Origin: Anaerolineae bacterium
GTDB lineage: Bacteria; Chloroflexota; Anaerolineae; Aggregatilineales; J027
Assembly: GCA_034437075.1 (NCBI GenBank)
Contig: DAOTVD010000126.1
Location: 1 to 58,067 of the forward strand
Length of the DNA stretch: 58,067 bases
Direction of reading: 5' to 3'
The first letter of the stretch is position 1. Every line of letters starts with the position of its first letter. Both the position numbers and the translations under genes were made by a program. This document shows positions 1 through 47,924 of this stretch, piece after piece. The notes beneath the pieces are model-generated. The model saw only the letters and a list, made by a program, of their open reading frames with translations. It had not been told where the DNA came from and ran no database searches.

Positions 1-3000
1 ATTTCCGCATTCTGGATGACCAGTTCGTTGAAGGCTTGCACTGTATAGACATTGGGCAAAAAGCGGCTGACAATCCCCGCCGTAGAGTAGTTTATATCCG
101 AACGATAGTCCAGCGCGCGCAGGGTTTGCGTGGCCGCGCTGGCCAGCGAGCGATCCACCCGCACGGTGAGTTCGCCCCGGCTGGTGTCTAGGCTGGGCGG
201 CAACACGACGATCTCGCCGCGCGAACCACTTTCGGGCATGACGCCCGCCGTGCCGACCGTTTCCGGCGCGCTATAGCGATACACGGGCAGCAAATCGTCA
301 TCGAAAGGCGCGGCGGTGGGCTTGGTGGCGTCCGTGAACTGGCCATCGTTGCCATCCGCGAAGAAGGTCAGGTCAACCGCTTGGCTTTCCAGGATGCGCA
401 CGCGCCAATTCACACGCTCGCGGCCCCCAGCGGGGATGTCTACCGTCTGGGTCAGATTCACCCCCGCCAAAGGCTCGAAGCCCGTGCCCTGAATGGAGAC
501 TTCGACGCTTTGGGCTTCGCCCGTGTTGTTATTGACCACCGCGCCCAGTTCGGCCACATCTCCGACGACGAAGAAGCGCGGCGTCAGAGGCCGCACCAAC
601 AGCGGCTTGGTGCTCAGCAAATCGGTGGTCGTTTGGCCGACGAGCATGGGCGCGTCGGCGTCGCCGCGCGTGATGGCCCGCGCATCCAAGCGCCAGGTCG
701 TCAGGTTATCCGGTAGCGTCAAGGTATATTCGGCTTCGCCGTTTTCATCGGTCACGAGGGTTGGTTCCCAACCGGGCGTATCGACAAATTCTTCGCGAAT
801 GTCAAAAATGCCGGATTCATCGCCACCGCCGCCACCGCCCTTGATGGTGTCGATGATGGTCTGCGTCAGGCGATCCACCGAGACGGATAGCGAGGCGCTC
901 GTGCGTACGCTGATTCCGCGCGTGGCGTAGAAGTGGTCGAGCAAGGTGCTGCTATTGGGCGGGGCGATGCTCAGCACCGACAAATCGGTGACGCTGAGCC
1001 CCACTTCCGCGCTGACGGGTTCGCCTTGCCAGTCCGTGGTGCGCACGGTGTAGGTGACCTCATCCCCCGGCCCGGCGAATTCATCCGGCGCGAGGTTGGG
1101 CGTCACCTCGATATTCATGGTCAACCGTTCGGTATCGACTTCTAGCATGGTCAGGCCCATGCGAAATTGCGCATAAGGGTGGTCCTCGTCCACGCCTTGC
1201 ACGATGACCACCGACACGAAAATATTGGGCGCGTGACCGGGCGTGATGGGCAATTCATAGACCTGGCTGTTGCTTTCGAGCGTGATAACCGCCTGTTGCA
1301 AGATGTCGCCACGCTCCACCGTCACCAGCGCGGTGGTTTCCCCCTGGAAGGGGCTGGCGATGAGGATTTCGGCAGTATCACCGACCTCGTAGCTGTCCGC
1401 GTCCGCGATGAGGTCAAAACGGTTGCTGTTCTGCTGCCGCCAGGCGACGTACTCGCGCCCACTGATCCACGTAAAGGCTGCCGATTGCACCGTGTTGCCG
1501 TCTGCGTCCTCGCCCCGGGCATAGACCTTATACGTCCCGGCGGTGGGCGGCACAAACGTAATCCGTCCGGTGCCGTCCGCGTCCGTGGTTAGCGTTCCGA
1601 TGCCATCTTGTAGGGGGATTTCTTCGACTGCCCACGTCCAGACCGTACGACCCAGTTCGTCTTCTTCCTGCACAGACGACCAACGCCGCTCCACGATTTC
1701 ATATTCGATTTCGCGGTCGGGGGCGGGTTCGCCTTGTGTATCGAGCGTCTGCACCAAGATAGCCGTCTCTTGCTCCGCGTTGCCGATATAGCTCTCCGGG
1801 CGCAGGCCAGTGTAGTACGCGCCCTGGTGCACGATGACCTCCGCGCGCCCGGCCACTAACTGATCGGTTTCGTCAATCACGCGCGCCTCGATGGTGTAGC
1901 GCTGGCTCTGGTTGCTCGTGCCCAGGTCGGCGGGCAGGGTGATCATGTAATTACCTTCGGCATCGGTCGTGGCTTCGCCGCTGGCGATTTGCTCGCCAAA
2001 GGCCCCACCCCGCGCGCCCGGCCCGGCATCCACGTCGAAATCCGTGAAGCTATAGCGCCGGAAGCCCTCCGGCGAGAAGGCATAGGGCGCACTGAGCACC
2101 GACCACTCGACCCGCGAGTCGCTGACCGCACCGCCGAAGAAATAATCCGCCTCGACTAACACGTTGATCTCTTCGCCCTGGATGACTTCATCCTGGTCGG
2201 GCGTGACGTTCACCTGAAATTCTGGCGCGGTGAACTCCGCGACGTTAAAACCTAAGCTGAACGTATCGCGCCATTCGCCGGGCGTCAGTTCCACGGCCAG
2301 GCGATAGAAACCCAGCGCGGCGCCTTCATCCAGCGTGAAGGAATCCGCGAAGGTGCCAAAGGGCGTCAGCGGCAAGTTGCCCTCATAGACGATGGCATCC
2401 TCGGGGTTATACACCACCACGAACACACTTTGCAGATTATCCGGCACGGTGAACTCGACATCATCTTGATTGCGGATCATGCCCCGGAAGTAAACTGGCT
2501 GGCCGGGCCGATAAATGGGCCGGTCGCTATACAGATACACGGTGCGCTCGCGCGGTTCGTATTCCGAGGGCAGTTCGAATTCCCAGGGGGCCAGGCCACG
2601 ATCCCAGCGCGCGCTGGCGAACGCGAACACGTCTTCACTTTGCACGGCGGCAAACAGCGAGTTATACAGGCTGTCCATTTCGGGGATTTCTAGCACAGCG
2701 ACGCCGTCCGCGTTGGTGTTCAAGCGCCCCAGCAAGCCAAACTCGGCATCGTAAAATTCTACGGGCACATCGGCCAGGGGTTCACCCGTCTGCAAATCCG
2801 TGACCCACGCCAGCGCGCTATCGGTGGAGAATTTGAAGACGATATTCGCATTGGCCACCAGCGCCACATGTTGCAGCGGGTCGTGCTCGCGGGCGGCGGT
2901 TTCCTCGCCTTGCACGGTTAGATAGTAAAATCCGGGGTCTAGGGCGGGGAAGTCCGCCGCATCGAGCACTTCGGGGTCGGTGCCAAAACGCTGCTCAAGC

Positions 3001-4949
3001 CCCATGAAGTAATCATCCGGCGTGCCTTCAGCCGACCAACCCGCTACGTCCTGGCCCTCGACCGTGATATTCCACCAGATGAAACCATCCGCGCAGATCG
3101 GCCCGCCGATGACATCGAACACGGTTTCCGGCGGGATTTCCGTCAAAATCTGGCTTTGCAGATTGGGTTCGGCGCGCACACGCAAGGGCGCCGGGTCATC
3201 CGGCACCACCACGCCCCGATCCCCAACTTGCAAACGGGGCGGCGGCGCGCCCAAACATTGGATATTGCCGATGCCATCCGGCCCGCTCTCGCTCAGCCGC
3301 AGCAGGTCGTAGCGCCGGATATTCTCCGGGCTACGCACATCCACCGACCAACGGCGCAGCAATTCCTCGTCAGAGGGGCTATACCCATCGCGCGTATCAA
3401 AGCCGGACATCAACTGCGTCACCTGTTCGGCGTCAATAGTATATAGCGCCGCATCCAGGCGGCTGACGTTGCGATGCGTCACGAAAACGCGCGTCGTCTC
3501 GTTATACGCGCTATACAGGCCGACGAAATCCGGCACATTCAGGTTTATATCGGGATCATAAGGCCGCGTAGAGAAGCGAATCACGGTTTCTTCTTCGATG
3601 CGATTACCATACGGGTCTTCGATGCCCGGCGCGATGGTGATGGTGTAATCCGTGCTGGGCTGGATGTCAAAATCCAGGCTATAGCGATTATCGTAATCGT
3701 AGTAAAAGGTTTCGAATTCGCGGAAGGGCTCTGGCTCTATCGTGAATTTGCCCTCTAGCGTGTCGGGGTCAATGGGCGCGTTGAAGTAAATCTGCACGCC
3801 GCCGAAGGGGTTGGCATCGTTTACGCCATCTTCGGGATTACTGCGCGTGATGCGCGGTGCCGGAACGGTGCTGAAGGCCGTCCCCCATTGCTCGGCCAGG
3901 CGGGCGCCCGAGGCACTCCGCGCGACCTCAATATCAATGAGCAATTCGTAAGCCGTGCCGAGCTTTAAGCGCTCGTCGGGCGTGATGACCACACGCCGAT
4001 TATCATCCTCCCATTCGAAGCCCAGCGCCAGTGGCGGCCCAATCGGCTGGATGTAATCGGCCACGCCCAGCCCGGCCAATTCAAAGAGCGAGATGGCCGC
4101 TTCGGTGGTAGCCCTGTCCATGGGTTGGGAGAACGTAATGCTCAAATCGGCATCCAGCGGCACATTATTCGCGACGGGTTCCGGCGAGGCTTCCACCACG
4201 ATGGGCGCTTGGGTGCTGAATCCCCATTCGTAAGGCACCGCCAAGACGCCCCCGCCGATGCTTTCTAGGCCAGCTTGCACGATGACCGTATGCTCGGTGC
4301 CCCCCGCCAGGCCATTTTCAGGCGTAAAGACGTAAATCGACGTATTCAGCCATTCGCCCTCGCCGGGCAGGTCTGGCGAGATGTTGAGCGGATTGGGGAA
4401 ATCTTCCATGTCGCCCAAGGTCGCCAAGGGCACCACGGGACGGTTAAAAATCACGGTGATCAGGCTATCCACGCCGATTTCAGTCGCGCCGGGGCGGGGC
4501 AGCACCTCGGCCACTTCCAAAAAGCCGACCACATTCAGACGCGCCGCGAAGGCTTCGTCCAGGCTCACACCGTCAGCGGATTCGGCCTCGGCGCTCACGC
4601 GCACGTCTAAGGCCGCGTCGCGGGGCCAGTCGCCCTCCGGCGAGATGACAAGCGTTTGCGCATCGTCCCATTCTGTCGCAAAGGTCACGGCGGGCAGGAT
4701 GGCTTCGCCCTCCGCCACGGCGGCACGCGCGAGCGTCAGCGCCTCGTCAACGCTAGATTGATCCATCGCTTGGTCAAAAAAGAGCGTAATGGGGTCATCC
4801 AACCCGAGTTCGGCTCCGGCAGGCGGTGTGATCTCCACCACACGCGGCGGGATGCCATCCGTCTGCGCGACTGGCTCGGCAGACACCAATGCCACGGAAC
4901 TGCACAGCGCCAACAGCGTGAACAGCAAACCTTTGAGATAACGATACAT
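1..4949 (-). CDS. Alpha-2-macroglobulin family protein with N-terminal Ig-like (Big_5-type) repeats and an internal SH3b domain; 3' end lies outside the window
   Basis: Hand translation from ATG 4949 gives MYRYLKGLLFTLLALCSSVALVSA (signal peptide). Ig-like repeats follow (PPRVVEITP...ITLFFDQAMD; EVAEVLP...ITVIFNRPV), then MG motifs (VYLYSDRPIYRPGQPVYFRG; DLSVLSIAPP; KGGGGGG bait-like segment; LPDNLTTWR). The same frame was confirmed at 4949, 3269 and 86. It is missing from the ORF track because no stop lies in the window. Confidence 0.9.
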   Translation of the reverse strand, partial: MYRYLKGLLFTLLALCSSVALVSAEPVAQTDGIPPRVVEITPPAGAELGLDDPITLFFDQAMDQSSVDEALTLARAAVAEGEAILPAVTFATEWDDAQTLVISPEGDWPRDAALDVRVSAEAESADGVSLDEAFAARLNVVGFLEVAEVLPRPGATEIGVDSLITVIFNRPVVPLATLGDMEDFPNPLNISPDLPGEGEWLNTSIYVFTPENGLAGGTEHTVIVQAGLESIGGGVLAVPYEWGFSTQAPIVVEASPEPVANNVPLDADLSITFSQPMDRATTEAAISLFELAGLGVADYIQPIGPPLALGFEWEDDNRRVVITPDERLKLGTAYELLIDIEVARSASGARLAEQWGTAFSTVPAPRITRSNPEDGVNDANPFGGVQIYFNAPIDPDTLEGKFTIEPEPFREFETFYYDYDNRYSLDFDIQPSTDYTITIAPGIEDPYGNRIEEETVIRFSTRPYDPDINLNVPDFVGLYSAYNETTRVFVTHRNVSRLDAALYTIDAEQVTQLMSGFDTRDGYSPSDEELLRRWSVDVRSPENIRRYDLLRLSESGPDGIGNIQCLGAPPPRLQVGDRGVVVPDDPAPLRVRAEPNLQSQILTEIPPETVFDVIGGPICADGFIWWNITVEGQDVAGWSAEGTPDDYFMGLEQRFGTDPEVLDAADFPALDPGFYYLTVQGEETAAREHDPLQHVALVANANIVFKFSTDSALAWVTDLQTGEPLADVPVEFYDAEFGLLGRLNTNADGVAVLEIPEMDSLYNSLFAAVQSEDVFAFASARWDRGLAPWEFELPSEYEPRERTVYLYSDRPIYRPGQPVYFRGMIRNQDDVEFTVPDNLQSVFVVVYNPEDAIVYEGNLPLTPFGTFADSFTLDEGAALGFYRLAVELTPGEWRDTFSLGFNVAEFTAPEFQVNVTPDQDEVIQGEEINVLVEADYFFGGAVSDSRVEWSVLSAPYAFSPEGFRRYSFTDFDVDAGPGARGGAFGEQIASGEATTDAEGNYMITLPADLGTSNQSQRYTIEARVIDETDQLVAGRAEVIVHQGAYYTGLRPESYIGNAEQETAILVQTLDTQGEPAPDREIEYEIVERRWSSVQEEDELGRTVWTWAVEEIPLQDGIGTLTTDADGTGRITFVPPTAGTYKVYARGEDADGNTVQSAAFTWISGREYVAWRQQNSNRFDLIADADSYEVGDTAEILIASPFQGETTALVTVERGDILQQAVITLESNSQVYELPITPGHAPNIFVSVVIVQGVDEDHPYAQFRMGLTMLEVDTERLTMNIEVTPNLAPDEFAGPGDEVTYTVRTTDWQGEPVSAEVGLSVTDLSVLSIAPPNSSTLLDHFYATRGISVRTSASLSVSVDRLTQTIIDTIKGGGGGGDESGIFDIREEFVDTPGWEPTLVTDENGEAEYTLTLPDNLTTWRLDARAITRGDADAPMLVGQTTTDLLSTKPLLVRPLTPRFFVVGDVAELGAVVNNNTGEAQSVEVSIQGTGFEPLAGVNLTQTVDIPAGGRERVNWRVRILESQAVDLTFFADGNDGQFTDATKPTAAPFDDDLLPVYRYSAPETVGTAGVMPESGSRGEIVVLPPSLDTSRGELTVRVDRSLASAATQTLRALDYRSDINYSTAGIVSRFLPNVYTVQAFNELVIQNAE

Positions 4950-5056
4950 ATGAGCATATCCCCCTGTATATTTTGACTTCAGTATACGGTCAACGCCCAG
5001 AGGACACAATTGGTTGACCGCTACAGGGGGCGCAGGAGTGCTATAGCGTGGGGTAT

Positions 5057-5419
5057 TTACCGGCTAATCTGGCTAGAAAGCGCCGCCCGGATGACCCGCA
5101 GTAGCGTGGAGGTCGTCACAGGCTTATGCAACATCTCCACGACCGCATCTGGCAAATTGGGGCGCCGGTTTTGCACAAACCCGGTCAGGACAATGATTTT
5201 GGCTGCCGCACCTGTCGCCTGCACATATTCGATGACCGTCGCGCCGGGCGCATCCGGCAGATTCAAATCCAGCACGATCAAATCCGGCTGGAACTCATCC
5301 ACCGCCGCAATCGCTTCGCGGCTACTTTCCACCGATAAAACATCATATTCTTCTGCCAGGGCATTATGATACATCCGCTGCACGGGCAAATCATCTTCCA
5401 CAAGCAAAATACGCGCCAT
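5057..5419 (-). CDS. Single-domain response regulator (REC)
   Basis: ILLVEDD, LIVLDLNLPD, IIVLTG and HKP receiver motifs; 120 aa. Confidence 0.9.
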   Translation of the reverse strand: MARILLVEDDLPVQRMYHNALAEEYDVLSVESSREAIAAVDEFQPDLIVLDLNLPDAPGATVIEYVQATGAAAKIIVLTGFVQNRRPNLPDAVVEMLHKPVTTSTLLRVIRAALSSQISR

Positions 5420-37769: not shown

Positions 37770-39353
37770 ATGCCAGCAGAATATAACTTGATCATCACCG
37801 GCTTTATGGGGGTGGGTAAAACCACCGTGGGCCAGCATATCGCCGCGCAATTAGGCCGCCCCTTTGTGGATACCGACGACATCATCAGCGAACGCCTGGG
37901 CAAAAACGTGCCGGACATCTTCGCCGCCTATGGCGAACCGTTTTTTCGCGCGCTGGAAGCCAGCATCGCCCGCGAATTTGCCACGCCGCAAGGGCTGGTT
38001 ATCGCTACGGGGGGCGGCACCCTGACCAATTACGAGAATATGCGCGCTATCAGCGGCCCGGGTAACGTCATCTTTTGCCTGAATGCGCCGCTGGATGATA
38101 TTTTCGCGCGCTTAGAAAAAGACACGCGCCGCCGCCCGATGATCGACCAACAAGGCGACCCGCGCGCCGCCGCCCAAGCCCTACTCGCCCAACGCCAGCC
38201 ACTCTACGCGCGCATCCGCCGCCACATCGACACCGGAGGCCGCCGCGTGGAGGACATCGCCGCCGAAATCATCGAAATATATAACGCCGAAGTCGCGCGC
38301 AATGCCATTCGCCTGCCCGTACATACCCCCACCAACTACTACCACATCTACATCGAGAATGGCATCATGGGCCAAATGCCCGAATTGCTAGCAGCCCATG
38401 CCCTGGACGGTCGGCGCACGCTCGTGGTGACCAATCTGACGCTAGCGCCGCTCTATGGTGAGCAGATGGCCGCCGCGCTGCCCCATGCCCAACTCATCAC
38501 CATCCCAGATGGCGAGCAGTACAAGAGCATTCCCATTGCCGAGCAACTGTATAAAGATTTTGCCGCCGCTGGGCTAGACCGCAACGGCGTGGTCATCGCG
38601 CTGGGGGGCGGCGTGGTGGGGGATACGGTGGGTTATGCGGCGGCGACGTATATGCGCGGTGTGGATGTGGTGCAAGTGCCGACCAGCTTACTGGCCATGG
38701 TCGATTCCTCCGTGGGGGGCAAGGTGGCCGTGGATATGCCCGAGGGCAAGAATCTTGTCGGTGCCTTCAAACAGCCCGAACTGGTCGTCGTTGATCCTGA
38801 TGTGCTGGGTACGCTGCCGCCCGCCGAAGTCCGCGCGGGCTTGGCGGAGGCCATCAAGCATGGATTGCTGGCCGACCCTGGGCTGTTGGATGAAATCGAA
38901 GGTATCGCGGTGGGGGATGCGGGCTTGCTGCGGCGGGCTGTGCAAGTCAAGGTAGATGTCGTAGAGCGCGACCCCTACGAAAGCGGCGAACGCGCGCACC
39001 TGAACCTGGGCCACACCTTCGCACATGCCATCGAGCGGCTGAGCAATTTTCAGTGGCGGCACGGCGAAGCGGTCGGCGTAGGGTTGGTGGCCGCCGCGCG
39101 GCTCTCGATGCATTTGGGCCGCCTGGCGGAAGACCAAGCCGAATACATCGAAAAGATTGTCGAAAAGGTGGGGCTACCCACGCGCATCAACGGCTTTGAC
39201 CCCGGCCATATGTGGGAGGCCATGCAGCTAGACAAAAAATGGCGCGATGGCGAATCGCATTTCGTGCTGCTAGATGGCATCGGCGCGCCCTGCCTGGTGC
39301 GCGGTGTCCCGCGTGAAGCCGTGACGACCATCCTAGAGGACATGCGGTCGTGA
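37770..39353 (+). CDS. aroB: Bifunctional shikimate kinase / 3-dehydroquinate synthase (AroK-AroB fusion)
   Basis: N-terminal GFMGVGKTTVG, FVDTD, ATGGG and RRP; C-terminal GGGVVGD, PTSLLAMVDSSVGGK, EAIKHG, LNLGHTFAHA and HGEAV. Confidence 0.96.
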   Translation: MPAEYNLIITGFMGVGKTTVGQHIAAQLGRPFVDTDDIISERLGKNVPDIFAAYGEPFFRALEASIAREFATPQGLVIATGGGTLTNYENMRAISGPGNVIFCLNAPLDDIFARLEKDTRRRPMIDQQGDPRAAAQALLAQRQPLYARIRRHIDTGGRRVEDIAAEIIEIYNAEVARNAIRLPVHTPTNYYHIYIENGIMGQMPELLAAHALDGRRTLVVTNLTLAPLYGEQMAAALPHAQLITIPDGEQYKSIPIAEQLYKDFAAAGLDRNGVVIALGGGVVGDTVGYAAATYMRGVDVVQVPTSLLAMVDSSVGGKVAVDMPEGKNLVGAFKQPELVVVDPDVLGTLPPAEVRAGLAEAIKHGLLADPGLLDEIEGIAVGDAGLLRRAVQVKVDVVERDPYESGERAHLNLGHTFAHAIERLSNFQWRHGEAVGVGLVAAARLSMHLGRLAEDQAEYIEKIVEKVGLPTRINGFDPGHMWEAMQLDKKWRDGESHFVLLDGIGAPCLVRGVPREAVTTILEDMRS

Positions 39354-40006
39354 ATTGCCCCATCTGTGCCGCGCCGCTAGACGCCTCACACACCAACACA
39401 CAGCGCGGCCTGGCCATTTGCGATACCTGCGACACCATATTCAGTCTGCCAGACGCCCCGCCGCACCCCGCGCCTGACCTCGGCCCGCGCCACGACTTGC
39501 AAGCCGCGCCGCAGGATGTCACGATCAGGACGCGCTGGTGGAGTCCTAATTTATGGCCTGTGCCCGCCCTTAGCGCCCTGTGGGCCGTGAGTGCGGTCAT
39601 CTGGCTGGGGAGTGGCCTGGCGAGTGGTGATCTGTTCATCACGCTTTCCGGCATACCCCATGCGACCATCGCGCTGGGGTTGGCATACTATAGCGCGACG
39701 CTCTATCGCAACACGACAACCACGTATTTTTCGCCGGACGGCCTGCGCATGACCCACGGCCCGCTGCCCCTGGCGCGCAACGTCCATGCCCGGCAAGCGT
39801 CTATTCAGCGGGTTTATGCCCGGCAGCGCTACCACCGCCGCAGTGATGAATTTAGCTATGGGGTGTACATCCGCTTGGCCAGCGGGCGCGACGAGGCCCT
39901 GCTGACTGGCCTACCCGAACCCGAAGCCGCACTGTATCTAGTGGACACCTTGCGCGCGCTGTGGGAAAATCCCGAAAAGGTACCCGAAAAGGTAAATGGA
40001 GATTAA
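39350..40006 (+). CDS. Hypothetical zinc-ribbon membrane protein
   Basis: CPIC...CDTC at the N-terminus and two TM segments; GTG start overlaps the aroB stop. Confidence 0.75.
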   Translation: MNCPICAAPLDASHTNTQRGLAICDTCDTIFSLPDAPPHPAPDLGPRHDLQAAPQDVTIRTRWWSPNLWPVPALSALWAVSAVIWLGSGLASGDLFITLSGIPHATIALGLAYYSATLYRNTTTTYFSPDGLRMTHGPLPLARNVHARQASIQRVYARQRYHRRSDEFSYGVYIRLASGRDEALLTGLPEPEAALYLVDTLRALWENPEKVPEKVNGD

Positions 40007-40009
40007 CCC

Positions 40010-40453
40010 ATGCATATCCTGATCTTGCACGGCCCGAATCTCAATCTGTTGGGCACGCGCGAACCAGAAATCTACGGCACAGCCACCCTAGCCGACATCG
40101 ACGACGCGCTCGAAAGCCTGGCCGCCGAACACGGCGCGACGTTGCGCGCGTTGCACTCCAACCATGAGGGCGTCCTGATTGACGCGCTGCACGAGGCGCG
40201 CGGTTGGGCGAACGGCGTGCTCATTAATCCGGGCGGGCTAACGCATACCTCGGTCGCGCTGCGCGATGCCGTCGCGGCGGTGGCTGTGCCCACCGTGGAA
40301 TGCCACCTGTCGAACATCGCCGCGCGCGAAGCCTTCCGCGCGCATTCATACCTCACGGGGGTTTGCCTGGGCGCGGTCAGCGGCTTCGGCCCGCAGAGCT
40401 ATACGCTTGGCTTACTGGCCCTCATCCAGCACCTGAAGCGGAGTCTTCCATGA
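40010..40453 (+). CDS. aroQ: Type II 3-dehydroquinate dehydratase
   Basis: [32 protein letters not shown] and ECHLSN. Confidence 0.98.
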
Positions 40454-40467
40454 ACGTGTAATCAGAC

Positions 40468-40740
40468 ATGGTCAAGAAAAAGAAGCTGTATCAAAAACTC
40501 GTCAACAATCAAAAAAATGTGCGCTTCCCTGATTTTTTGCGGGTAATTGAAGCGTTCGGTTTTGAACAAGATCGCGTCAAAGGCAGCCATCGTGTATATA
40601 AACATCCTACTCTTCAAGATGAGTTTCTTGTGCTGCAACCAAGCAAAAGTGGCGAGGCCAAACCTTACCAGATTAAACAGTTCTTGCTATTGGTCGAAAC
40701 CTATGATCTAAGGATGGATGACAATGACGACGATGACTAA
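40468..40740 (+). CDS. hicA: HicA family toxin (type II TA)
   Basis: RFPDFLRVIEAFGF...KGSHRVYKHP...KPYQIKQ. Confidence 0.92.
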   Translation: MVKKKKLYQKLVNNQKNVRFPDFLRVIEAFGFEQDRVKGSHRVYKHPTLQDEFLVLQPSKSGEAKPYQIKQFLLLVETYDLRMDDNDDDD

Positions 40741-40954
40741 TGATTATCACATCAACATCTTTTTTAGCGTCGAAGACGAAGCCTATATTGCTGATATACC
40801 TGACCTTAAGTTTTGCTCCGCCCACGGCGAAACTCCTGAAGAAGCCTTGGCCGAGGTATTGATTGCCAAACAAGCCTGGTTAGAAGCTGCACATGAGAAT
40901 GGGCGCCCCATTCCAAAACCACGCTATCGCCCTGCAATTTATCAGGCATATTAA
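40733..40954 (+). CDS. hicB: HicB family antitoxin, short form with no DNA-binding domain
   Basis: YIADIPDLKFCSAHGETPEEALAE...AWLEAAHENGRPIPKP; start set at ATG 40733 overlapping the hicA stop. Confidence 0.93.
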   Translation: MTNDYHINIFFSVEDEAYIADIPDLKFCSAHGETPEEALAEVLIAKQAWLEAAHENGRPIPKPRYRPAIYQAY

Positions 40955-40960
40955 CTTCAC

Positions 40961-41092
40961 TGACGTTACGCACGCGCTTGGCATCCAAGGGGTTAAAACC
41001 CCTTGTTAACTTATAGCGACCTTTCATGGCCTCTTAACAAGGGGCTGAAGCCCCTTGAAGAAAGCCGATTTTGATAAAACTGCGTAACGTCA
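40961..41092. repeat. 132-bp MITE/BIME-like element: 12-bp terminal inverted repeats around two inverted REP palindromes
   Basis: TGACGTTACGCA (40961-40972) / TGCGTAACGTCA (41081-41092); CAAGGGGTTAAAACCCCTTG (40986-41005) and CAAGGGGCTGAAGCCCCTTG (41038-41057). Confidence 0.75.
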
Positions 41093-41129
41093 CAACGTCA
41101 TAAGGATTACTCTAGCAATAGTATGGCCC

Positions 41130-43547
41130 TCATCCAGCACCTGAAGCGGAGTCTTGCGTAGCCGATGTATTATCTTCTTCAGGCTTGACATGCCGCCGCC
41201 GGAAACCTAGCTTGCCTTCGGCATGATTGACCACGACTTTAACCGTATCGCCCGCTGAAAACCGTTCATCCAACAGCGCGGAGGAAAGCGGACGCAGCAA
41301 TAAGCGCTCGATAGCTCGGCGCAACGGTCGCGCGCCTTCGGTCACCGACGCGCCTTCGCGCAACAGCATCGCGCGGGCCTCCGCGCTGAGGTCGATGCGC
41401 ATATCTTGCGCGTCTAAGCGCTCGGTCAATTCGGCCAGTTGCGCATCCAAGATGCGATCCAAGGCGATGTCATCCAAGGGGCGGAAGGTGACGACCTCAT
41501 CAATACGATTGAGAAATTCCGGGCGGAAGGTGCGCTTGAGTTCCTCGCTATAATCCGGCAACTGGTCGGGCTGGGCCATAAAACCGAAGCCCTTACCGAC
41601 TGAGTCCGAACCAATATTGCTGGTCATGATCCAAACCGCGTGGCGCCCATCCACGGTCGCGCCGAGCGCATCGGTCAGGCGGCCTTCGTCGAAGACTTGC
41701 AAGAACAGGTCGAAGACTTCTACGGCGGCTTTTTCGATTTCATCCAGCAAGACCACCGAATAGGGCCGGCGGCGCAAGGCTTCGGTCAGTTGGCCGCCGC
41801 GTTCGGTGCCTTTGTAGCCGGGCGGAGCGCCGATGAGCCGCGCGGCGGTATGCTCATCATAAAATTCGGACATATCCAGGCGGATCATGGCATCATAATC
41901 GCCAAACATGAATTCCGCGATGGCCTGCGCCAGGGCTGTTTTGCCCACGCCACTCGGCCCGATGAACAAAAAGACCCCGGTCGGGCGCTGAGGATTACCC
42001 AACCCGGCACGCTGGGTTTTGATGGCATCCACCACCGTATCGACGGCATGCTCTTGGCCAAAGACCCGCGCCTTAATGTGCTCATCCATGCGGGCCACGC
42101 GCGCGCGCTCATCGGCGGTGAGGTCGGCCAAGGGAATGCCCGTCCATTCACTGAGCACTTCGCGCACATGCTGCGGCCCTACGGGGCGCGTTTCGCCATC
42201 CAGCGATTCATCCGGCGATTGAGATTGGATCACGACGCGCGCGCAGGCTTCGTCTAGCAGATCGAGCGCTTTGTCGGGCAGGCGACGGTCAGGCAAGTAA
42301 CGATCCGACAAAAGCACGGCGGCCTGGCGCGCTTCGGGGTGAATGTGGACATCGTGGTGTTCTTCGTAGCGGGCGTACACATTCTCGATAATGGCCAGCG
42401 TTTGGGTCACGGTCGGCTCGCCAATATCAATCGTGCGAAAGCGGCGGTCAAGCGCGGGGTCTTTAGCCACGGCTTTGCGATATTCTTCGAAGGTCGTGGC
42501 ACCAATGCATGAGATTTCGCCCCGGGCTAGCGCTGGTTTCAGGATATTGGCTGCGTCCAGATTGCTATCAATGGTATCGCCCGCGCCGACAATGGTGTGA
42601 ATCTCGTCAATGAACAGGATCACCCCCGGCGACGACTTCGCCTCGTCCACAATGCCGACTAGGCGCTCCTCAAATTGGCCGCGCAGGCTGGTGCCGGCCA
42701 CTAATGTCCCAATTTCCACTTGAATAATGCGCGACTCGCGCAAGGGCCGGGGCGCGGTGCCCTGGGCAATCTGCCAAGCCAAGCCTTCGACCACGGCGGT
42801 TTTGCCGACCCCCGCATCGCCGAGCAGCAGCGGATTGTTCTTTTTGCTGCGTGTCAGCGTCCGCGCGACGGCGCGAATCTCTTTTTCGCGCCCGATGGCC
42901 GCGTGCAGTTTGTTCAGGCGCGCTTGCTCGGTCAGGTCACGCCCGTATTTATCCAGCAAGGGGGTGGGCATGTTGGTGGGCATACTCGCTTCGAGGTCAT
43001 CATCCGAGAAATCGAAGGTTGGGGCGTAATCGTCATCAAAATAATCGAAGACATCATCGTCAAAATCTTCGATCTCCAGCGCATCATCCAACTGCAAATG
43101 CTCGGTCAAGTATTCGACCCAATACGCGACATCAACGCCCATCTGGCGGATTTTGCGCACGGCGACCCCTTCGCCTTCTTGCAACAAGCTGAGCAATAAT
43201 TGCTCTTGTGTCACCTCGGTTTCGCCCATGTCGTCGGCCAGATACACCGCCTGAGTCAGCACCCGATGCGCGCGGGGTGTAAAGGGCAAATATTCAGAGA
43301 GCACATCATCGCCCATGCCTACATCGCGCCGGATGGCATTGCGCACTTCGCGCGTATCCAGCCCGGACTCTAGCAAGATGCGGCTCGTAATTCCCCCTTT
43401 GATGCGGGTCAAACCATTAAAGAGATGCTCGGTACCGATGTAATTATGGCGCAAGCGCGATGCTTCGCCTTCGGCGTGTTGCAACAGATGGCCCACCAGA
43501 GTGCGGATTTCGGCATCGGTCATTTCCATTGGGGATTCGGATGACAT
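41130..43547 (-). CDS. ClpA/ClpC-family AAA+ ATPase
   Basis: Two Clp N repeats; GDAGVGKT / LFIDEIH; DRRLPDKALDLLDEA; GPSGVGKT / LLDEIEK; FRPEFLNRIDE; GARPLRR. Confidence 0.96.
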   Translation of the reverse strand: MSSESPMEMTDAEIRTLVGHLLQHAEGEASRLRHNYIGTEHLFNGLTRIKGGITSRILLESGLDTREVRNAIRRDVGMGDDVLSEYLPFTPRAHRVLTQAVYLADDMGETEVTQEQLLLSLLQEGEGVAVRKIRQMGVDVAYWVEYLTEHLQLDDALEIEDFDDDVFDYFDDDYAPTFDFSDDDLEASMPTNMPTPLLDKYGRDLTEQARLNKLHAAIGREKEIRAVARTLTRSKKNNPLLLGDAGVGKTAVVEGLAWQIAQGTAPRPLRESRIIQVEIGTLVAGTSLRGQFEERLVGIVDEAKSSPGVILFIDEIHTIVGAGDTIDSNLDAANILKPALARGEISCIGATTFEEYRKAVAKDPALDRRFRTIDIGEPTVTQTLAIIENVYARYEEHHDVHIHPEARQAAVLLSDRYLPDRRLPDKALDLLDEACARVVIQSQSPDESLDGETRPVGPQHVREVLSEWTGIPLADLTADERARVARMDEHIKARVFGQEHAVDTVVDAIKTQRAGLGNPQRPTGVFLFIGPSGVGKTALAQAIAEFMFGDYDAMIRLDMSEFYDEHTAARLIGAPPGYKGTERGGQLTEALRRRPYSVVLLDEIEKAAVEVFDLFLQVFDEGRLTDALGATVDGRHAVWIMTSNIGSDSVGKGFGFMAQPDQLPDYSEELKRTFRPEFLNRIDEVVTFRPLDDIALDRILDAQLAELTERLDAQDMRIDLSAEARAMLLREGASVTEGARPLRRAIERLLLRPLSSALLDERFSAGDTVKVVVNHAEGKLGFRRRHVKPEEDNTSATQDSASGAG

Positions 43548-43746: not shown

Positions 43747-46221
43747 ATGGCTACAGACCCTTTGCTTAATCGAAAACTCGGTGATTACACCATCATTGAT
43801 CTGCTCGGTAAAGGCGGCATGGCCCGCGTGTATCGAGGGTATGACGAGAACCTAGATCGTTACGCCGCCGTCAAGGTCATCAGCGGTGACTTTGCCACAG
43901 CGGACGAAGCCGAATACAACGAACGGTTCTTGAAAGAAGCACGTGCCATCGCCCGCCTAAACCATCCGAATATTGTGGGGGTGTATCAATTCGGCAATGC
44001 CGAGGGCGTATATTATATGGCGATGCACTTTTTGGATGGCGAAGACCTACGCATCATCTTGCGCCGCTATGCCAAAGCGGGCCAAAAAATGCCCTACGCC
44101 GACATCTTGCGCATGGGGCGCGACATGGCCGATGCGCTCGATTATGCCCATACCGAAGGCGTGGTGCATCGCGACATTAAGCCATCGAACATCATGATTC
44201 TGAACACCAGCGGGCGCGCCGTGCTGACGGATTTTGGTCTGGCGCTCAGCGTGCCCGAAGGCACCATGGGCGATACCTTTGGCACCGCGCATTATATCGC
44301 CCCCGAGCAGGCGATTTCCTCGGCGAATGCCGTCCCTCAAAGTGACTTGTATTCGTTCGGGGTGGTGTTGTATGAGGCGCTGGCCGGGCAAGTGCCCTTC
44401 GATGAACCCTCCGCTATGAGCGTGGCCCTGAAGCACCTCAACGATAGCCCCCCGCCGCCCAGCGTCTTCAACCCCGCCTTGCCCGAAACCGCCGAAGAAG
44501 TGCTGATGCGCGCCTTGGCCAAAGACCCGGCAGAACGCTACCCCACAGGCAACGACTTACTCGACGCGCTGGAAGAAGCCCTGGGCGAAACCGCCCCCAC
44601 CAACCAACGCATCAGCACCGCCAGCAATATCGTGAGCGCAGCGCCGCCGGCAAAAGGCAACGACTGGGAATCCTATCTGAAGTCTGTGGAAGAATCCAAC
44701 GTGACGCCGCCCAGCCCCGTGCCCGATACGCCCACGGATATGCGCCCCAGGCCAGGCGAGCAAACCGAACCCTGGTCGCCCTCCATGATGGATCGCCCGT
44801 CGCAGATCGAAGCCATGGCGCGTCAGCAACAACGTAACAATATGCTGGTGCTTTTAACGCTGGTGGTGGTGCTCATTCTAGTCGGGATCATTGCCGCCGC
44901 CGTCCTGTTTTCGGGGGGTGAAGAAAATGGCGAAGACAATTTACAACAGGCGCTGGTCAGCGCGCGCCAAACCGAAAATGCCGAGAATCGCGCTGCCTCG
45001 CAAACGGCAGTCGCCCTGTTTACCGACACCCCCACGCCGACCGAAACTTTTACGCCCACGAACACCAACACACCCACCGACATACCATCGCCCACCAACA
45101 CACCCACCGACACGCCATCACCCAGCAATACACCCACCGACACGCCATCACCCACCGACACGCCATCACCCACCGACACGCCCACCGAGCTAGCGGCAAT
45201 TGCGCCCACGGCACTGCCCCCCCAGATTCGCCTGGTCTATACCAGCGACTGGATGCTCATCAGCAACCTGACAGAAGACCCGGTCGATTTACAAGCCGTG
45301 CGTTTTCAACAAGTGGGCAGTGACTTCGACCGCGAATTTGATTTTGTCAGCGATTTTGAATCCTTGAGCCGCGCCGAATTACCGCCCGATAGCTGCTTTC
45401 AGTTGGTGCGGTCGCCCAGCTTTCTCACCGAGCCCGATCTCGTGGCGCTGTGTAGCCCCGGTGATCGCATCGCCTGGGTATCGCCAGGGCGCTCGGCGTT
45501 GTTCTGGACGAACTCGGAACAAGACGGCAATTTTGTGGTGGCGCTGGGCCGCCGCACGCTCACCGAATGCTCGCTTATGCTGAATCCGCAGGGCTTCGGC
45601 ACCTGTGAATTTACCACCGAACGGCCACTCATTCTGGATAGTGGCGCCGCGCCTCCGCCAGCGGAAAGCGCCAACCGCGCCACCGACACGCCCGAACCCG
45701 ATGAGACATCCACCGAACGCGCCGCGACGGCCACTCCGACTGAAGAAGCTACCCAGGCCGCTACAGCGACCGCCACGCGCACCCCAGCCCCCACGCAGGC
45801 GGTTACCGAGGAACCATCCCCCACAGCGGAAATCGACGAGAATGCCGAGATCGAAATCGTTTATGACAATGAACGGCTGTATATCCGCAATATCTCGGGC
45901 GTGCGGCAAAACATCACGCCTTTGCGTTTCGAACAAGGGGAAACGATTGTCTTTGGCGCTGCCGAATGGCGCGATACGGGCGTGGGCTCGACCAGTCTAT
46001 TCCCGGCTGGTGCTTGTTATCTGCTGGTGACCTCGCCCCGGGCCGCGTTGCCCGTGCCCAGCGAATGTGACCGCAGCCTGGGGTGGATCCAACGCAGCAC
46101 CACGAGCCACTTCTGGATCGCGCGTAACGATGAGGTTACCACTTTTGAAGTCATTTACGACAATGACCAGATTGCAGAATGCGACATCGCAGACGGGCGT
46201 TGCACCTTTGTGTTAGAATAA
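43747..46221 (+). CDS. Transmembrane Hanks-type Ser/Thr protein kinase
   Basis: GKGGMARVY, AVK, HRDIKPSN, DFG and APE; a TM helix, P/T-rich linkers and two related Cys-containing extracellular domains. Confidence 0.96.
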   Translation: MATDPLLNRKLGDYTIIDLLGKGGMARVYRGYDENLDRYAAVKVISGDFATADEAEYNERFLKEARAIARLNHPNIVGVYQFGNAEGVYYMAMHFLDGEDLRIILRRYAKAGQKMPYADILRMGRDMADALDYAHTEGVVHRDIKPSNIMILNTSGRAVLTDFGLALSVPEGTMGDTFGTAHYIAPEQAISSANAVPQSDLYSFGVVLYEALAGQVPFDEPSAMSVALKHLNDSPPPPSVFNPALPETAEEVLMRALAKDPAERYPTGNDLLDALEEALGETAPTNQRISTASNIVSAAPPAKGNDWESYLKSVEESNVTPPSPVPDTPTDMRPRPGEQTEPWSPSMMDRPSQIEAMARQQQRNNMLVLLTLVVVLILVGIIAAAVLFSGGEENGEDNLQQALVSARQTENAENRAASQTAVALFTDTPTPTETFTPTNTNTPTDIPSPTNTPTDTPSPSNTPTDTPSPTDTPSPTDTPTELAAIAPTALPPQIRLVYTSDWMLISNLTEDPVDLQAVRFQQVGSDFDREFDFVSDFESLSRAELPPDSCFQLVRSPSFLTEPDLVALCSPGDRIAWVSPGRSALFWTNSEQDGNFVVALGRRTLTECSLMLNPQGFGTCEFTTERPLILDSGAAPPPAESANRATDTPEPDETSTERAATATPTEEATQAATATATRTPAPTQAVTEEPSPTAEIDENAEIEIVYDNERLYIRNISGVRQNITPLRFEQGETIVFGAAEWRDTGVGSTSLFPAGACYLLVTSPRAALPVPSECDRSLGWIQRSTTSHFWIARNDEVTTFEVIYDNDQIAECDIADGRCTFVLE
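45025..45189 (+). repeat. Intragenic tandem repeats encoding a T/P/S linker
   Basis: Repeated CCCACCGACACGCCATCA-type 18-mers (PTDTPS) and CCCACCAACACA-type units. Confidence 0.85.
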
Positions 46222-46239: not shown

Positions 46240-47835
46240 TTGAAGCTAGTGAACGATCAAACCATCTTGGAACAGCGAACGCGCGCGCTACAGGCTATGG
46301 TCCGGGTTTCGCAACTTATCGACAGCATCGACCTGGACTATGTACTGGGTGAGATGCTCAAGATCATTACCGAAACCGTCGAGGCCTATAAAGGCAGCAT
46401 CTTTCTGCTGGATGAGAAGCTGCAACCTGTCCAACGCTTTTTGACCCAGCGTGCCCTCCCCCCCGAAATGACCCGCCAGGTCGCGCACGATGTGTTGGAT
46501 AAGGGCCTAGCGGGTTGGTGTGTGCGCCATGGACAGGGCGCTATCGTCCCCGACATCAGCCAGGATGGCCGCTGGCATATCTTCCCGGATGATCATCAGC
46601 AGGATGTCCGGTCGGCGATGTGTGTGCTCTTGCAACACGAAGGGCGGACGCTGGGCGTACTGACTTTGGTGAATCCGAACGTGGCCCATTTTCATGACGA
46701 ACACTTGCAAATCGTACAGGCCATCGCGAACCAGGCCGGGCTAGCCATTCGCAACGCCCAACTCATCGATCACCTGGAAAGCCAACAGCACGAAATGCGC
46801 CTGATGCTCGAAACAGTCAGCGATGCCCTGCTAGCCTTGGACGCCCAACTGAATGTGCGCCTCATCAACCGGCGTGCGCGCGAGTTGCTGGGTGTCGCGC
46901 CGGGCGCGGATGTGGCCGGCCAACCCTTGGCCCAATTGGCGGGGGCCTCGGTGTATACCCAAGTCGTCAGTCGCCTACAAGACCCCGCCGCCATCGAACA
47001 AGCCGCGAATATCATCGTGCGCGACGAGCCCAACCAGAAAGATTATGCGCTGCAAATCGCCAGGCTGGGCCAGCCCGACCAGCAAAGTGGGCCGGGGTAT
47101 GTGACCGTATTGCACGATGTCACCACCATCCGAGATGTGGATCGCCTGAAGACGCAAATGTTGCAAATGCTCAGCCACAACCTCAAAAACCCGATGAACA
47201 TCGTCTGGGGTTATGTCGATCTGCTGCGGATTGATAGCGAAGATGGCAAATCGACAGACCCGCGTTTTGTGGATAGCATCTTGCGGGCGCTGCAACGCAT
47301 GGAAATCTTGATCGATGAAACGCTGGCCGCCTCGCGGCACATCACCGAAGATTTTGCCATGCTTCAGCGCGATGTCTTCGCCCCCACCAAGACCATTTCC
47401 GACTTGTTGTATGACATGAACAGCCTGGCGGAAGCCAAGTCGCTGACCATTGTGCGCGATATTCAGCCCGATATGGCCCCGTTTTTGGCCTGGGCTTTCC
47501 AGATGCGCGAAGCCATGGCCAATCTGTTGGGCAACGCCATCAAATACACCCCGGAGGGCGGCACCCTGACGGTGCAGGCCCGGCGCGACGACGAGCGCTT
47601 TTCGTTCTCGGTGCAGGATACGGGCATCGGCATCCCTGGCCACCTGCAAGCTCAGCTATTCACCGAATATTACCGTGCCGAGCGCCCCGCGCTCAGAGAA
47701 ATCCCCGGTACTGGGCTGGGGCTGAGCCTCGTGAAAAAGATCGTCCAAGCCCACGAGGGCGACGTTTGGTTCCAGAGTAAAGAACACGACGGCAGTACGT
47801 TTGGGCTGTGGGTTCCTGTCGTACCGCTTGAGTAA
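46240..47835 (+). CDS. Cytoplasmic GAF-PAS-HisKA-HATPase sensor kinase with an atypical H-box
   Basis: GAF (KGLAGWCVRHGQGAIVPDISQDGRW), PAS, SHNLKNP H-box, NLLGNAIKYT, DTGIGIP and GTGLGL; TTG start is uncertain. Confidence 0.92.
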   Translation: MKLVNDQTILEQRTRALQAMVRVSQLIDSIDLDYVLGEMLKIITETVEAYKGSIFLLDEKLQPVQRFLTQRALPPEMTRQVAHDVLDKGLAGWCVRHGQGAIVPDISQDGRWHIFPDDHQQDVRSAMCVLLQHEGRTLGVLTLVNPNVAHFHDEHLQIVQAIANQAGLAIRNAQLIDHLESQQHEMRLMLETVSDALLALDAQLNVRLINRRARELLGVAPGADVAGQPLAQLAGASVYTQVVSRLQDPAAIEQAANIIVRDEPNQKDYALQIARLGQPDQQSGPGYVTVLHDVTTIRDVDRLKTQMLQMLSHNLKNPMNIVWGYVDLLRIDSEDGKSTDPRFVDSILRALQRMEILIDETLAASRHITEDFAMLQRDVFAPTKTISDLLYDMNSLAEAKSLTIVRDIQPDMAPFLAWAFQMREAMANLLGNAIKYTPEGGTLTVQARRDDERFSFSVQDTGIGIPGHLQAQLFTEYYRAERPALREIPGTGLGLSLVKKIVQAHEGDVWFQSKEHDGSTFGLWVPVVPLE

Positions 47836-47924
47836 CCCACCATCATGCTGCTGGATACCAATATGAACGACATACAACACAAAATCAGTTCCTATCGCAC
47901 CGCTTGAGTAACCCACCATGATGC
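47812..47924 (+). repeat. 37-bp imperfect direct repeat duplicating the kinase-GNAT junction
   Basis: GTTCCT(G/A)TCG(T/C)ACCGCTTGAGTAACCCACCAT(C/G)ATGC at 47812-47848 and 47888-47924. Confidence 0.9.
47845..47907 (+). pseudogene. 20-aa mini-ORF MLLDTNMNDIQHKISSYRTA; possible PIN/VapC N-terminal remnant
   Basis: Lies inside the junction duplication. LLDTN matches the first PIN-domain motif, but that is only five residues. Confidence 0.3.

Follow-up and report, generated by a model that had tools for sequence, protein, structure and literature searches.

A hicAB toxin-antitoxin cassette at the overlapping ends of aroQ and clpC: a probable case of insertion with long target duplication in an Anaerolineae bacterium

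In this analysis, we focus on a hicAB toxin-antitoxin (TA) pair carried by contig DAOTVD010000126.1 of the Anaerolineae bacterium assembly GCA_034437075.1, of which the whole stretch of 58,067 bp was analysed and is termed the window in what follows. The pair lies between aroQ and a convergent clpC-like gene, in a segment poor in guanine and cytosine (GC) that is bounded on both sides by an exact direct repeat (Table 1). The coding content of this segment is limited to hicA and hicB, two overlapping open reading frames (ORFs) on the plus strand. The locus is a real hicAB cassette acquired by horizontal transfer, and probably a recent one. The way in which chromosomal TA modules move outside plasmids, phages, integrons and transposons is poorly understood, and this locus provides a clean, nearly scar-free example.

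Table 1. Features of the aroQ-hicAB-clpC locus in the window, followed by the repeats that flank related hicAB loci
Feature	Position	Strand	Description
aroQ (type II 3-dehydroquinate dehydratase)	40010..40453	+	Pfam DHquinase_II 3e-55; NCBIfam TIGR01088 equivalog over residues 2-141
Direct repeat, copy 1	40416..40447	.	32 bp; now 3' end of aroQ
Inserted segment	40448..41123	+	676 bp, GC 0.439
hicA toxin	40468..40740	+	90 aa; Pfam HicA_toxin 2e-10, 41 bits vs gathering score 27
hicB antitoxin	40718/40724..40954	+	76-78 aa; two candidate starts; overlaps hicA end
Nested palindrome	40961..41092	.	outer 12-bp stem TGACGTTACGCA (40961-40972) / TGCGTAACGTCA (41081-41092)
Direct repeat, copy 2	41124..41155	.	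32 bp; now 3' end of clpC, incl. stop 41130-41132
clpC-like double-AAA+ Clp ATPase	41130..43547	-	805 aa; Pfam Clp_N, AAA, AAA_lid_9, AAA_2, ClpB_D2-small
L037 repeat			136 bp, mismatches allowed
L094 repeat			at least 93 bp, mismatches allowed, reaches contig end; first 93 bp of lepA
L061 repeat			88 bp, mismatches allowed; xanthine/uracil permease stop overlapping (TGATG) yqeC start
L052 repeat			78 bp, mismatches allowed; last 26 codons of alpha-amylase-family gene; new in-frame stop from insert
L027 repeat			48 bp, mismatches allowed; promoter-like TTGACA-N17-TACAAT, now before hicAB and downstream yefM-yoeB
L069 repeat			19 bp
L065 repeat			17 bp; stop + ribosome-binding site + next start

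As the original prediction had put forward, an exact 32-bp repeat flanks hicAB: the 32-mer TGGCCCTCATCCAGCACCTGAAGCGGAGTCTT is found in two exact copies in the window, with no third copy there. No match to it came up in 100 dinucleotide-preserving shuffles, even with up to 3 mismatches tolerated, and among the six families of direct repeats of at least 20 bp lying within 6 kb across the whole window, this one is the sole exact one. Its edges are sharp: the bases that adjoin the two copies agree at 0 of 7 positions on the left and at 4 of 9 on the right. At the left filled junction, the window reads GGCTTAC, the 32-mer and then CCATGAAC, and at the right one it reads CAATAGTA, the 32-mer and then GCGTAGCC. 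The empty-site junction deduced from these would be GGCTTAC, the 32-mer and GCGTAGCC, and the junction of a circle or of a tandem would be CAATAGTA, the 32-mer and CCATGAAC.

Each copy of the repeat now completes one of the two neighbours. The first provides residues 136-146 of AroQ, after which the last codon and the stop (CCA TGA, 40448-40453), both derived from the insert, make the protein end in ...KRSLP*, while the second provides the end of clpC with its stop. Each of them also retains a remnant of the other gene: the minus strand of copy 1 carries an orphan clpC tail (40422-40447, ...DSASGAG*) and the plus strand of copy 2 an orphan tail of the ancestral aroQ (41123-41161, with its TAG at 41159-41161). 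When the repeat is collapsed in silico, an intact aroQ is recovered that ends in ...KRSLA* (GCG TAG at 41156-41161) and overlaps the clpC stop, just as had been predicted, and the reconstructed ancestral overlap of the two genes is 32 bp long (41130-41161), the repeat being offset from it by 6 bp. Because the repeat ends 6 bp before the aroQ end, the last residue of AroQ has changed from Ala to Pro and its stop from TAG to TGA. The duplication thus let both genes keep their ends, and the initial description of the event as scarless holds as far as the integrity of the two genes is concerned, but not for this last codon and stop, which come from the insert. The locus shows in this respect how essential genes with a tight overlap can come apart undamaged.

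An ancestral tail-to-tail overlap of aroQ and clpC, which the original prediction had deduced from the window itself, is supported by the sequences of relatives. In four independent relatives without hicAB, the Clp of which is 70-75% identical to that of the window, aroQ and clpC are convergent and overlap each other by 4 bp (L003/L004, L018 and L019) or by 12 bp (L016), and all of them have a single-copy junction, not the two copies of the repeat that would have refuted the original prediction. At such Clp identities, these junctions are not alignable base for base with the 32-mer. The C-terminal tail of Clp is variable and of low complexity, and it is longer in the window than in most of the relatives, which would explain why the ancestral overlap of 32 bp exceeds theirs; the reconstructed AroQ tail has a length inside the range of its family. 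The homologues of Clp place the organism in the Chloroflexota, among the Anaerolineae. The scan of genome contigs with Clp returned distant, irrelevant loci only. In other members of the clade, the clpC/aroQ junction varies: DUF7482 and DinB-family genes stand between the two in L017 (5379-7010), aroQ has been lost in L002 (6392-6671), and in the closest relative, L001 (6410-6774; 87% Clp identity), clpC is followed by other sequence and then by the contig end.

Upstream of the insert, aroQ closes a long plus-strand operon that comprises trpE, trpG, the genes for DAHP synthase and prephenate dehydrogenase, aroA, aroE, aroC, aroK-aroB, a 218-aa ORF and finally aroQ itself. The synteny of aroK/B and aroQ is also found in L016, L018 and L019. 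The 218-aa ORF (39350-40006), which overlaps the aroK/B stop by 4 bp and has no Pfam or NCBIfam match, has a 217-aa counterpart at the same place in L015, whereas aroK/B adjoins aroQ in L016, L018 and L019; it resembles an older insertion into the trp/aro operon that is specific to the lineage.

The segment between the two copies of the repeat stands apart from its surroundings by its composition. Its GC is to be compared with a contig mean of 0.599 (sd 0.035, in windows of 676 bp), and the 676-bp window of lowest GC in the contig begins at position 40451, so that it coincides with the segment that the repeats delimit. The GC at third codon positions (GC3) is 0.45 for hicA and 0.44 for hicB, as against 0.68-0.79 in the neighbouring host genes, because of which the segment is, judging from GC and GC3, of foreign origin. 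From the 32/32 identity of the two copies and from this unameliorated GC, it is a reasonable inference that the event would be recent and the cassette excisable. The structure is also not an artefact of the assembly, because an independent one (GCA_046541395.1, a 34,252-bp contig, locus L103) encodes an identical HicA and runs collinear with 6,273 bp of the window, differing at 2 positions and carrying both copies of the repeat. The AroQ, HicA and Clp proteins are singletons at 90% identity in an exact-protein cluster look-up, and the collections thus yielded no empty site from the same species.

The start codon of hicA lies 14 nt past the new aroQ stop, on the same strand. The Gly-Ser-His motif of HicA (G39 S40 H41) is intact and invariant across 11 homologues, and the AlphaFold model built with these homologues (pLDDT 88) has as top PDB matches 6g26, 4c26 and 1whz, with a probability of 0.99-1.00; the predicted fold resembles the HicA structure of Burkholderia pseudomallei (6g26). 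In sequence, this HicA is 21-31% identical to those of solved structure, and it differs from the characterised ones by an additional helix at the N terminus and by an acidic tail. For HicB, the match to Pfam HicB_lk_antitox (E 7.8e-6, 26.5 bits) is slightly below the gathering score of 27, the best PDB match of a profile of 11 homologues is a weak one to HicB3 of Yersinia pestis (residues 5-64, E 0.25), and the single-sequence AlphaFold model is of low confidence (pLDDT 59). The assignment is supported by position and conservation, hicB being kept beside hicA in all relatives. Summed matches to TALE repeats in a phmmer search of HicB against PDB were disregarded as spurious. PADLOC and NCBIfam gave no match for either protein.

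As in the known systems of B. pseudomallei (PDB 6g26) and Y. pestis (HicA3B3, PDB 4p78), the toxin gene is upstream of the antitoxin gene and overlaps it, here by 17-23 nt on the same strand, and HicA has the expected fold, of the dsRBD-like kind, and the Gly-Ser-His motif with its catalytic histidine. A HicB-like N-terminal domain, of the partial RNase H-like kind, is probably shared as well, but the HicB of the window differs by its small size and by the absence of a C-terminal DNA-binding domain of the ribbon-helix-helix or helix-turn-helix type (HicB3 has 143 aa). It consists of this putative N-terminal domain only, as do the 11 members of its family, which have 72-84 aa and all end right after that domain. 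A C-terminal DNA-binding domain, which serves autoregulation, is found in many HicB proteins, but not in all of them.

Past hicB, the remainder of the insert is made of 169 nt of non-coding DNA that holds a nested palindrome, the outer stem of which encloses two GC-rich hairpins (40986-41005 and 41038-41057). Folded as DNA, it reaches -32.9 kcal/mol (z = -5.9), and 0 of 200 shuffles are as stable. The hairpin motif occurs once in the window; the palindrome has no Rfam family above threshold, it gave no match in the metagenome contigs searched with it as a degenerate pattern, and it is not present in the related hicAB inserts. It may act as a bidirectional terminator or as an insulator between hicAB and the convergent clpC. 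We also considered reading it as the attC site of an integron cassette, and rejected this: GTTACGC stands on its 5' side and GCGTAAC on its 3' side, which is the reverse of the expected order and off consensus, no integrase was found, and the insertion of a cassette yields no 32-bp duplication.

We then have to ask what could have moved this segment. The original prediction stated that the cassette contains neither integrase nor transposase, and indeed hicA and hicB are all that it encodes; no recombinase was found inside the 676 bp, and no restriction or modification gene either (Pfam, PADLOC being likewise empty). A Pfam scan of selected non-overlapping ORFs of at least 90 aa across the 58-kb contig, together with the large open frame at its start, revealed no integrase, transposase, Cas1 or relaxase. 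No tRNA gene was found in the contig, no further copy of the insert in the window, and a blastn search with the whole insert gave no match in plasmids or phages. No inverted repeat of at least 14 nt pairs one end of the insert with the other.

Related hicAB loci show that the arrangement is not confined to the window. An alignment of the HicA family was scanned against metagenome contigs, which gave 80 further loci, 68 of them with both flanks, and for each of these we compared the 600 bp upstream of hicA with the 800 bp downstream of hicB and kept the longest stretch that they share exactly. Exact flanking repeats of 17-73 bp were obtained at 7 of the 68 loci, while the pairing of flanks across loci gave a maximum of 17 bp in 600 trials, and of 469 virtual cassettes of the same shape, set at other positions in these loci and in the window, 1 reached 17 bp (Fisher's exact test, p = 3e-6 at 17 bp and above). 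At 30 bp and above, the counts are 5/68 loci against 0/469 controls (Fisher p = 3e-5). The duplication signature recurs in about 10% of the related hicAB loci, far above background, and this suggests that gene pairs of this kind can be mobile without carrying a mobility gene.

The eight loci, the window included, have duplications of 17, 19, 32, 48, 78, 88, at least 93 and 136 bp. The repeats are host sequence taken at gene boundaries (gene ends, gene starts, promoters) and are unrelated from one locus to the next, and in each clear case one edge of the repeat is no more than a few bases away from the end of a gene. The inserts, of 548-817 bp, can be aligned with one another across hicAB only and have no conserved termini; they start 17-288 nt upstream of hicA, so that their boundaries vary relative to the operon. 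Their GC is clearly below that of the flanks in L061, L052, L065 and L094. A reading of the ORF lists indicates that hicAB is co-oriented with its upstream neighbour at every repeat-flanked locus. Three of the inserts start 17-20 nt upstream of hicA, which led us to consider a retro-insertion derived from mRNA; we discarded it, as other inserts appear to include their own promoter-like -10 and -35 boxes.

In the window (40448-40453) as in L052 (1406-1409), the in-frame stop provided by the insert falls at the position of the original stop or one codon away from it, a coincidence of about 5% in each case; these near-original positions may reflect selection on the insertions that survived. The nearest HicA relatives, at 69% identity at most, are found in varied contexts, and no flanking repeats were found at the closest hicAB relatives (L005 and L006-L012), the pattern having come to light in the wider sample of 80 loci only. 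Several of these, at 63-64% HicA identity, reside in loci of diversity-generating retroelements (L006, 2607-4551; L007-L010; L005, 18-5344). The hicAB pair adjoins bAvd in L006-L010, with a reverse transcriptase directly after in L006 and L007, and in L005 it stands between two nSTAND/NACHT-FGE-sulfatase genes that are likely targets of the retroelement.

The closest precedent is that of restriction-modification (R-M) systems, for which a mode of insertion that duplicates a long stretch of the target has been described on the basis of a repeat of more than 30 bp and an insert smaller than 20 kb (Furuta, Abe & Kobayashi 2010, PMC2853133; also 2000, Gene 259:99). Some of the R-M examples have repeats of 46 bp in which the 3' end of an adjacent gene is included, and a tentative link was made between the insertion and the breaks that the restriction enzyme makes in DNA (PMC2853133). 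In a later review, long-duplication insertion is assigned to R-M systems and not to other TA systems (PMC3874152). The insert of the window resembles the cases of Furuta and colleagues by its exact 32-bp repeat, its 676 bp and its lack of a mobility gene, but its cargo is a TA pair and not an R-M complex. The similarities extend further, since in both cases a small addiction-type complex without a mobility gene and of deviant GC stands between direct repeats longer than 30 bp. In the R-M cases, the 3' end of a neighbour is often part of the repeat (e.g., 15 bp of HI0105), as it is here, the length of the repeat differs between cases, and insertion into operons has been reported. The repeat is also single-copy at the empty site of R-M insertions, although for the window that site is deduced from distant relatives and not from a sister strain. 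Two differences remain. First, the cargo of the window is a type II TA pair with a predicted RNase toxin, which makes double-strand breakage by the cargo impossible; second, the target is a 32-bp tail-to-tail overlap, from which both genes were rescued by the duplication. By this analogy, the locus would be the TA counterpart of the insertion mode known for R-M systems.

Other likenesses are more partial. In Microcystis aeruginosa PCC 7806, a chromosomal ParE/ParD-like module lies, like the hicAB pair of the window, between two identical direct repeats (152 bp) without any mobility gene between them (PMC7935541); unlike those of the window, however, these repeats are intergenic and have inverted repeats within them, they were not shown to be a duplicated target or duplicated gene ends, and the module belongs to another TA family (PMC7935541). 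Integrative elements with a tyrosine integrase specific for tRNA genes or gene ends, and their integrase-less derivatives, rebuild the 3' end of the gene that they target. They share with the window the flanking direct repeats and the preserved 3' end, but here the scanned ORFs of the contig include no integrase, related inserts do not have the repeat in common and no conserved attP-like end exists. Insertion sequences (IS), transposons and miniature inverted-repeat transposable elements (MITE) differ from the window by their terminal inverted repeats, their transposase and their short duplication of fixed length.

We consider it fairly probable that a foreign hicAB fragment was inserted through a host-mediated, illegitimate event that duplicated 32 bp of target where two genes ancestrally overlapped. 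According to this scheme, 676 bp of foreign, low-GC DNA, made of the hicA-hicB operon and its hairpin-rich 3' tail, would have entered the chromosome of an Anaerolineae-type member of the Chloroflexota and landed in the 32-bp overlap of aroQ and the clpC-like gene. The insertion would have been achieved by the host, without an element-encoded recombinase, likely through the filling-in of staggered breaks, or through two end-joins or template switches at offset positions. In the process, 32 bp of target would have been duplicated, one copy finishing aroQ with a codon and a stop from the insert and the other finishing clpC, so that both housekeeping genes would survive through the duplication. 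Being co-oriented with aroQ and just behind it, hicAB could be transcribed by read-through from the operon. The DNA break cannot be the work of the cargo if HicA is, as predicted, an RNase, and an insertion made by the host is therefore favoured. The signature was formerly tied to R-M systems and tentatively put down to their DNA cleavage, so that its presence with an RNase toxin pair argues in the same direction.

Two filters would then determine which insertions can be seen. One is that the genes on either side have to be left intact by the duplication, and the other that TA addiction would oppose the precise deletion of the insert through its repeats; together, addiction and gene-sparing duplication would decide which insertions persist. 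Homologous recombination would subsequently spread such arrangements between related strains, as can be proposed because the differences between copies in L094 and L052 look synonymous.

Several observations weigh against this scheme or at least complicate it. The target duplication is deduced by way of relatives with 70-75% Clp identity, none of which is conspecific. In L094, the two copies (1-93 and 701-793) differ at 4 sites which, as the alignment reads, are all third codon positions of lepA, and in L052, 2 of the 3 mismatches are at wobble positions, while the terminal codon and stop, although replaced, give Glu-stop in either version (511-514 and 1406-1409). This hints that some repeat copies derive from diverged alleles and not from decay where they stand, in which case homologous recombination spreads pre-formed arrangements and blurs the individual origins. 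Two of the seven cases, L037 and L027, sit in TA islands, and their histories are possibly more complex. The donor of the fragment was not found in the plasmids, phages and metagenome contigs searched. Finally, the molecular pathway has, to our knowledge, never been demonstrated experimentally, even for R-M systems. As for the two islands themselves, that of L037 is made of brnT-brnA and of a fragment of a DUF2284 gene (498-1056, 1121-1393) and that of L027 of yefM-yoeB (1495-1955), which suggests successive insertions at one spot.

The diverged copies could also be taken as the sign of a homologous import of the Campbell type or of the allelic type, in which the arrangement would have formed once in another strain and then arrived through the homology of aroQ and clpC, or by a single crossover of a one-copy circle. 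The third-position differences in L094 are those expected from a diverged allele, the wobble mismatches and the "synonymous" codon and stop of L052 go the same way, and the structure is common to two assemblies. Such an import nevertheless accounts for the spread of the arrangement and not for its origin, for which an initial duplicating event is still required. In the window, moreover, the copies are 32/32 identical and the flanks offer no testable mosaic of divergence, and a homology of 32 bp is near the lower limit for a RecA-dependent crossover. We therefore hold it to be rather unlikely as the explanation of this locus.

Site-specific integration, which we find decidedly unlikely, would make of the 32-bp repeat an attL/attR core, and of the 676-bp unit either an integrase-less miniature (CIME-like or satellite) mobilised in trans by a tyrosine integrase, or the remnant of a larger element. 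Integrases do often target gene 3' ends and restore them by a copy brought by the element, a perfect identity over 32 bp is within the usual range of att sites, and the structured palindrome of the insert could in principle bind a protein. But the insert has no integrase and neither do the scanned ORFs of the contig, and the 32-mer has, on inspection of its sequence, no dyad symmetry of the core-site type. A reading of the 32-mer as a Xer/dif site was rejected on the latter point too, and because it sits in coding sequence. The palindrome, as seen above, is restricted to this insert among the related inserts and searched collections. The repeats of the related inserts are unrelated, range from 17 to 136 bp and come without the conserved termini that a dedicated recombinase requires; a transposase or a dedicated integrase is disfavoured because of this variable length, these unrelated repeats, the lack of conserved ends and the lack of a recombinase.

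The same variability bears on an integration in trans of the transposon type, or of the Cas1/casposase type, with an unusually long target-site duplication, which is very improbable in our view. Long duplications are not without example, as about 14-15 bp are duplicated by casposons and, when CRISPR spacers are integrated, a repeat of roughly 30 bp, and IS1630 has duplications of 19-26 bp (cited in PMC2853133). However, the duplications of the hicAB family vary eight-fold and the ends of the inserts are not conserved. The insert of the window has no terminal inverted repeats, the best that inspection yields being a 7-of-8 match at unequal distances from the ends, and there is neither a transposase or Cas1 gene among the scanned ORFs of the contig nor another copy of the insert in the window. 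Lastly, the stitching of a foreign fragment into the contig at a shared k-mer, which comes to mind because the window is an entire contig of a metagenome-assembled genome (MAG), is hardly credible, since the same structure exists in an independent NCBI assembly with 2 single-nucleotide differences in 6.3 kb, such stitching would not produce a duplication that preserves two reading frames, and analogous structures recur in unrelated metagenome contigs.

If insertion by the host is retained for the window, a broader proposal can be formulated, which we offer as a tentative one and regard as doubtful in its full extent. Type II TA pairs like those of this HicAB subfamily could be minimal mobile units, spread across phyla by a general host pathway that places short promoter-plus-operon fragments at gene boundaries with long and variable duplications; such a pathway could dispense with breaks made by the cargo, because HicA is an RNase. 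If this were true, the flanking repeats would permit amplification or excision as a circle, while addiction would make the insertions effectively irreversible and fix the neighbouring operons. Whatever its extent, the signature offers a rule to search genomes and MAGs for recent addiction modules, namely a small low-GC gene pair between repeats of at least 17 bp that are made of gene ends.

The rest of the window has a housekeeping and signalling character, the scanned ORFs comprising alpha-2-macroglobulin, the dcw cluster from ftsZ to murE, the trp/aro operon, clpC, kinases and PA14 proteins. A direct repeat of 37 nt, 92% identical between its two copies, which are 76 nt apart (47812-47848 and 47888-47924), occupies the end of a GAF histidine-kinase gene and the intergenic space ahead of a gene for a GNAT acetyltransferase; no Rfam family matches it. 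Tandem 30-nt repeats (45063-45170) encode a linker rich in Pro, Thr, Asp and Ser in an 824-aa Ser/Thr kinase, and this kinase and the GAF histidine kinase that comes next are syntenic with clpC in several relatives (L001, L003, L017, L018). At the other extremity, an alpha-2-macroglobulin frame of more than 1,680 codons (3-5063, minus strand; Big_5, MG2, bMG3, A2M) runs off the left end of the contig.

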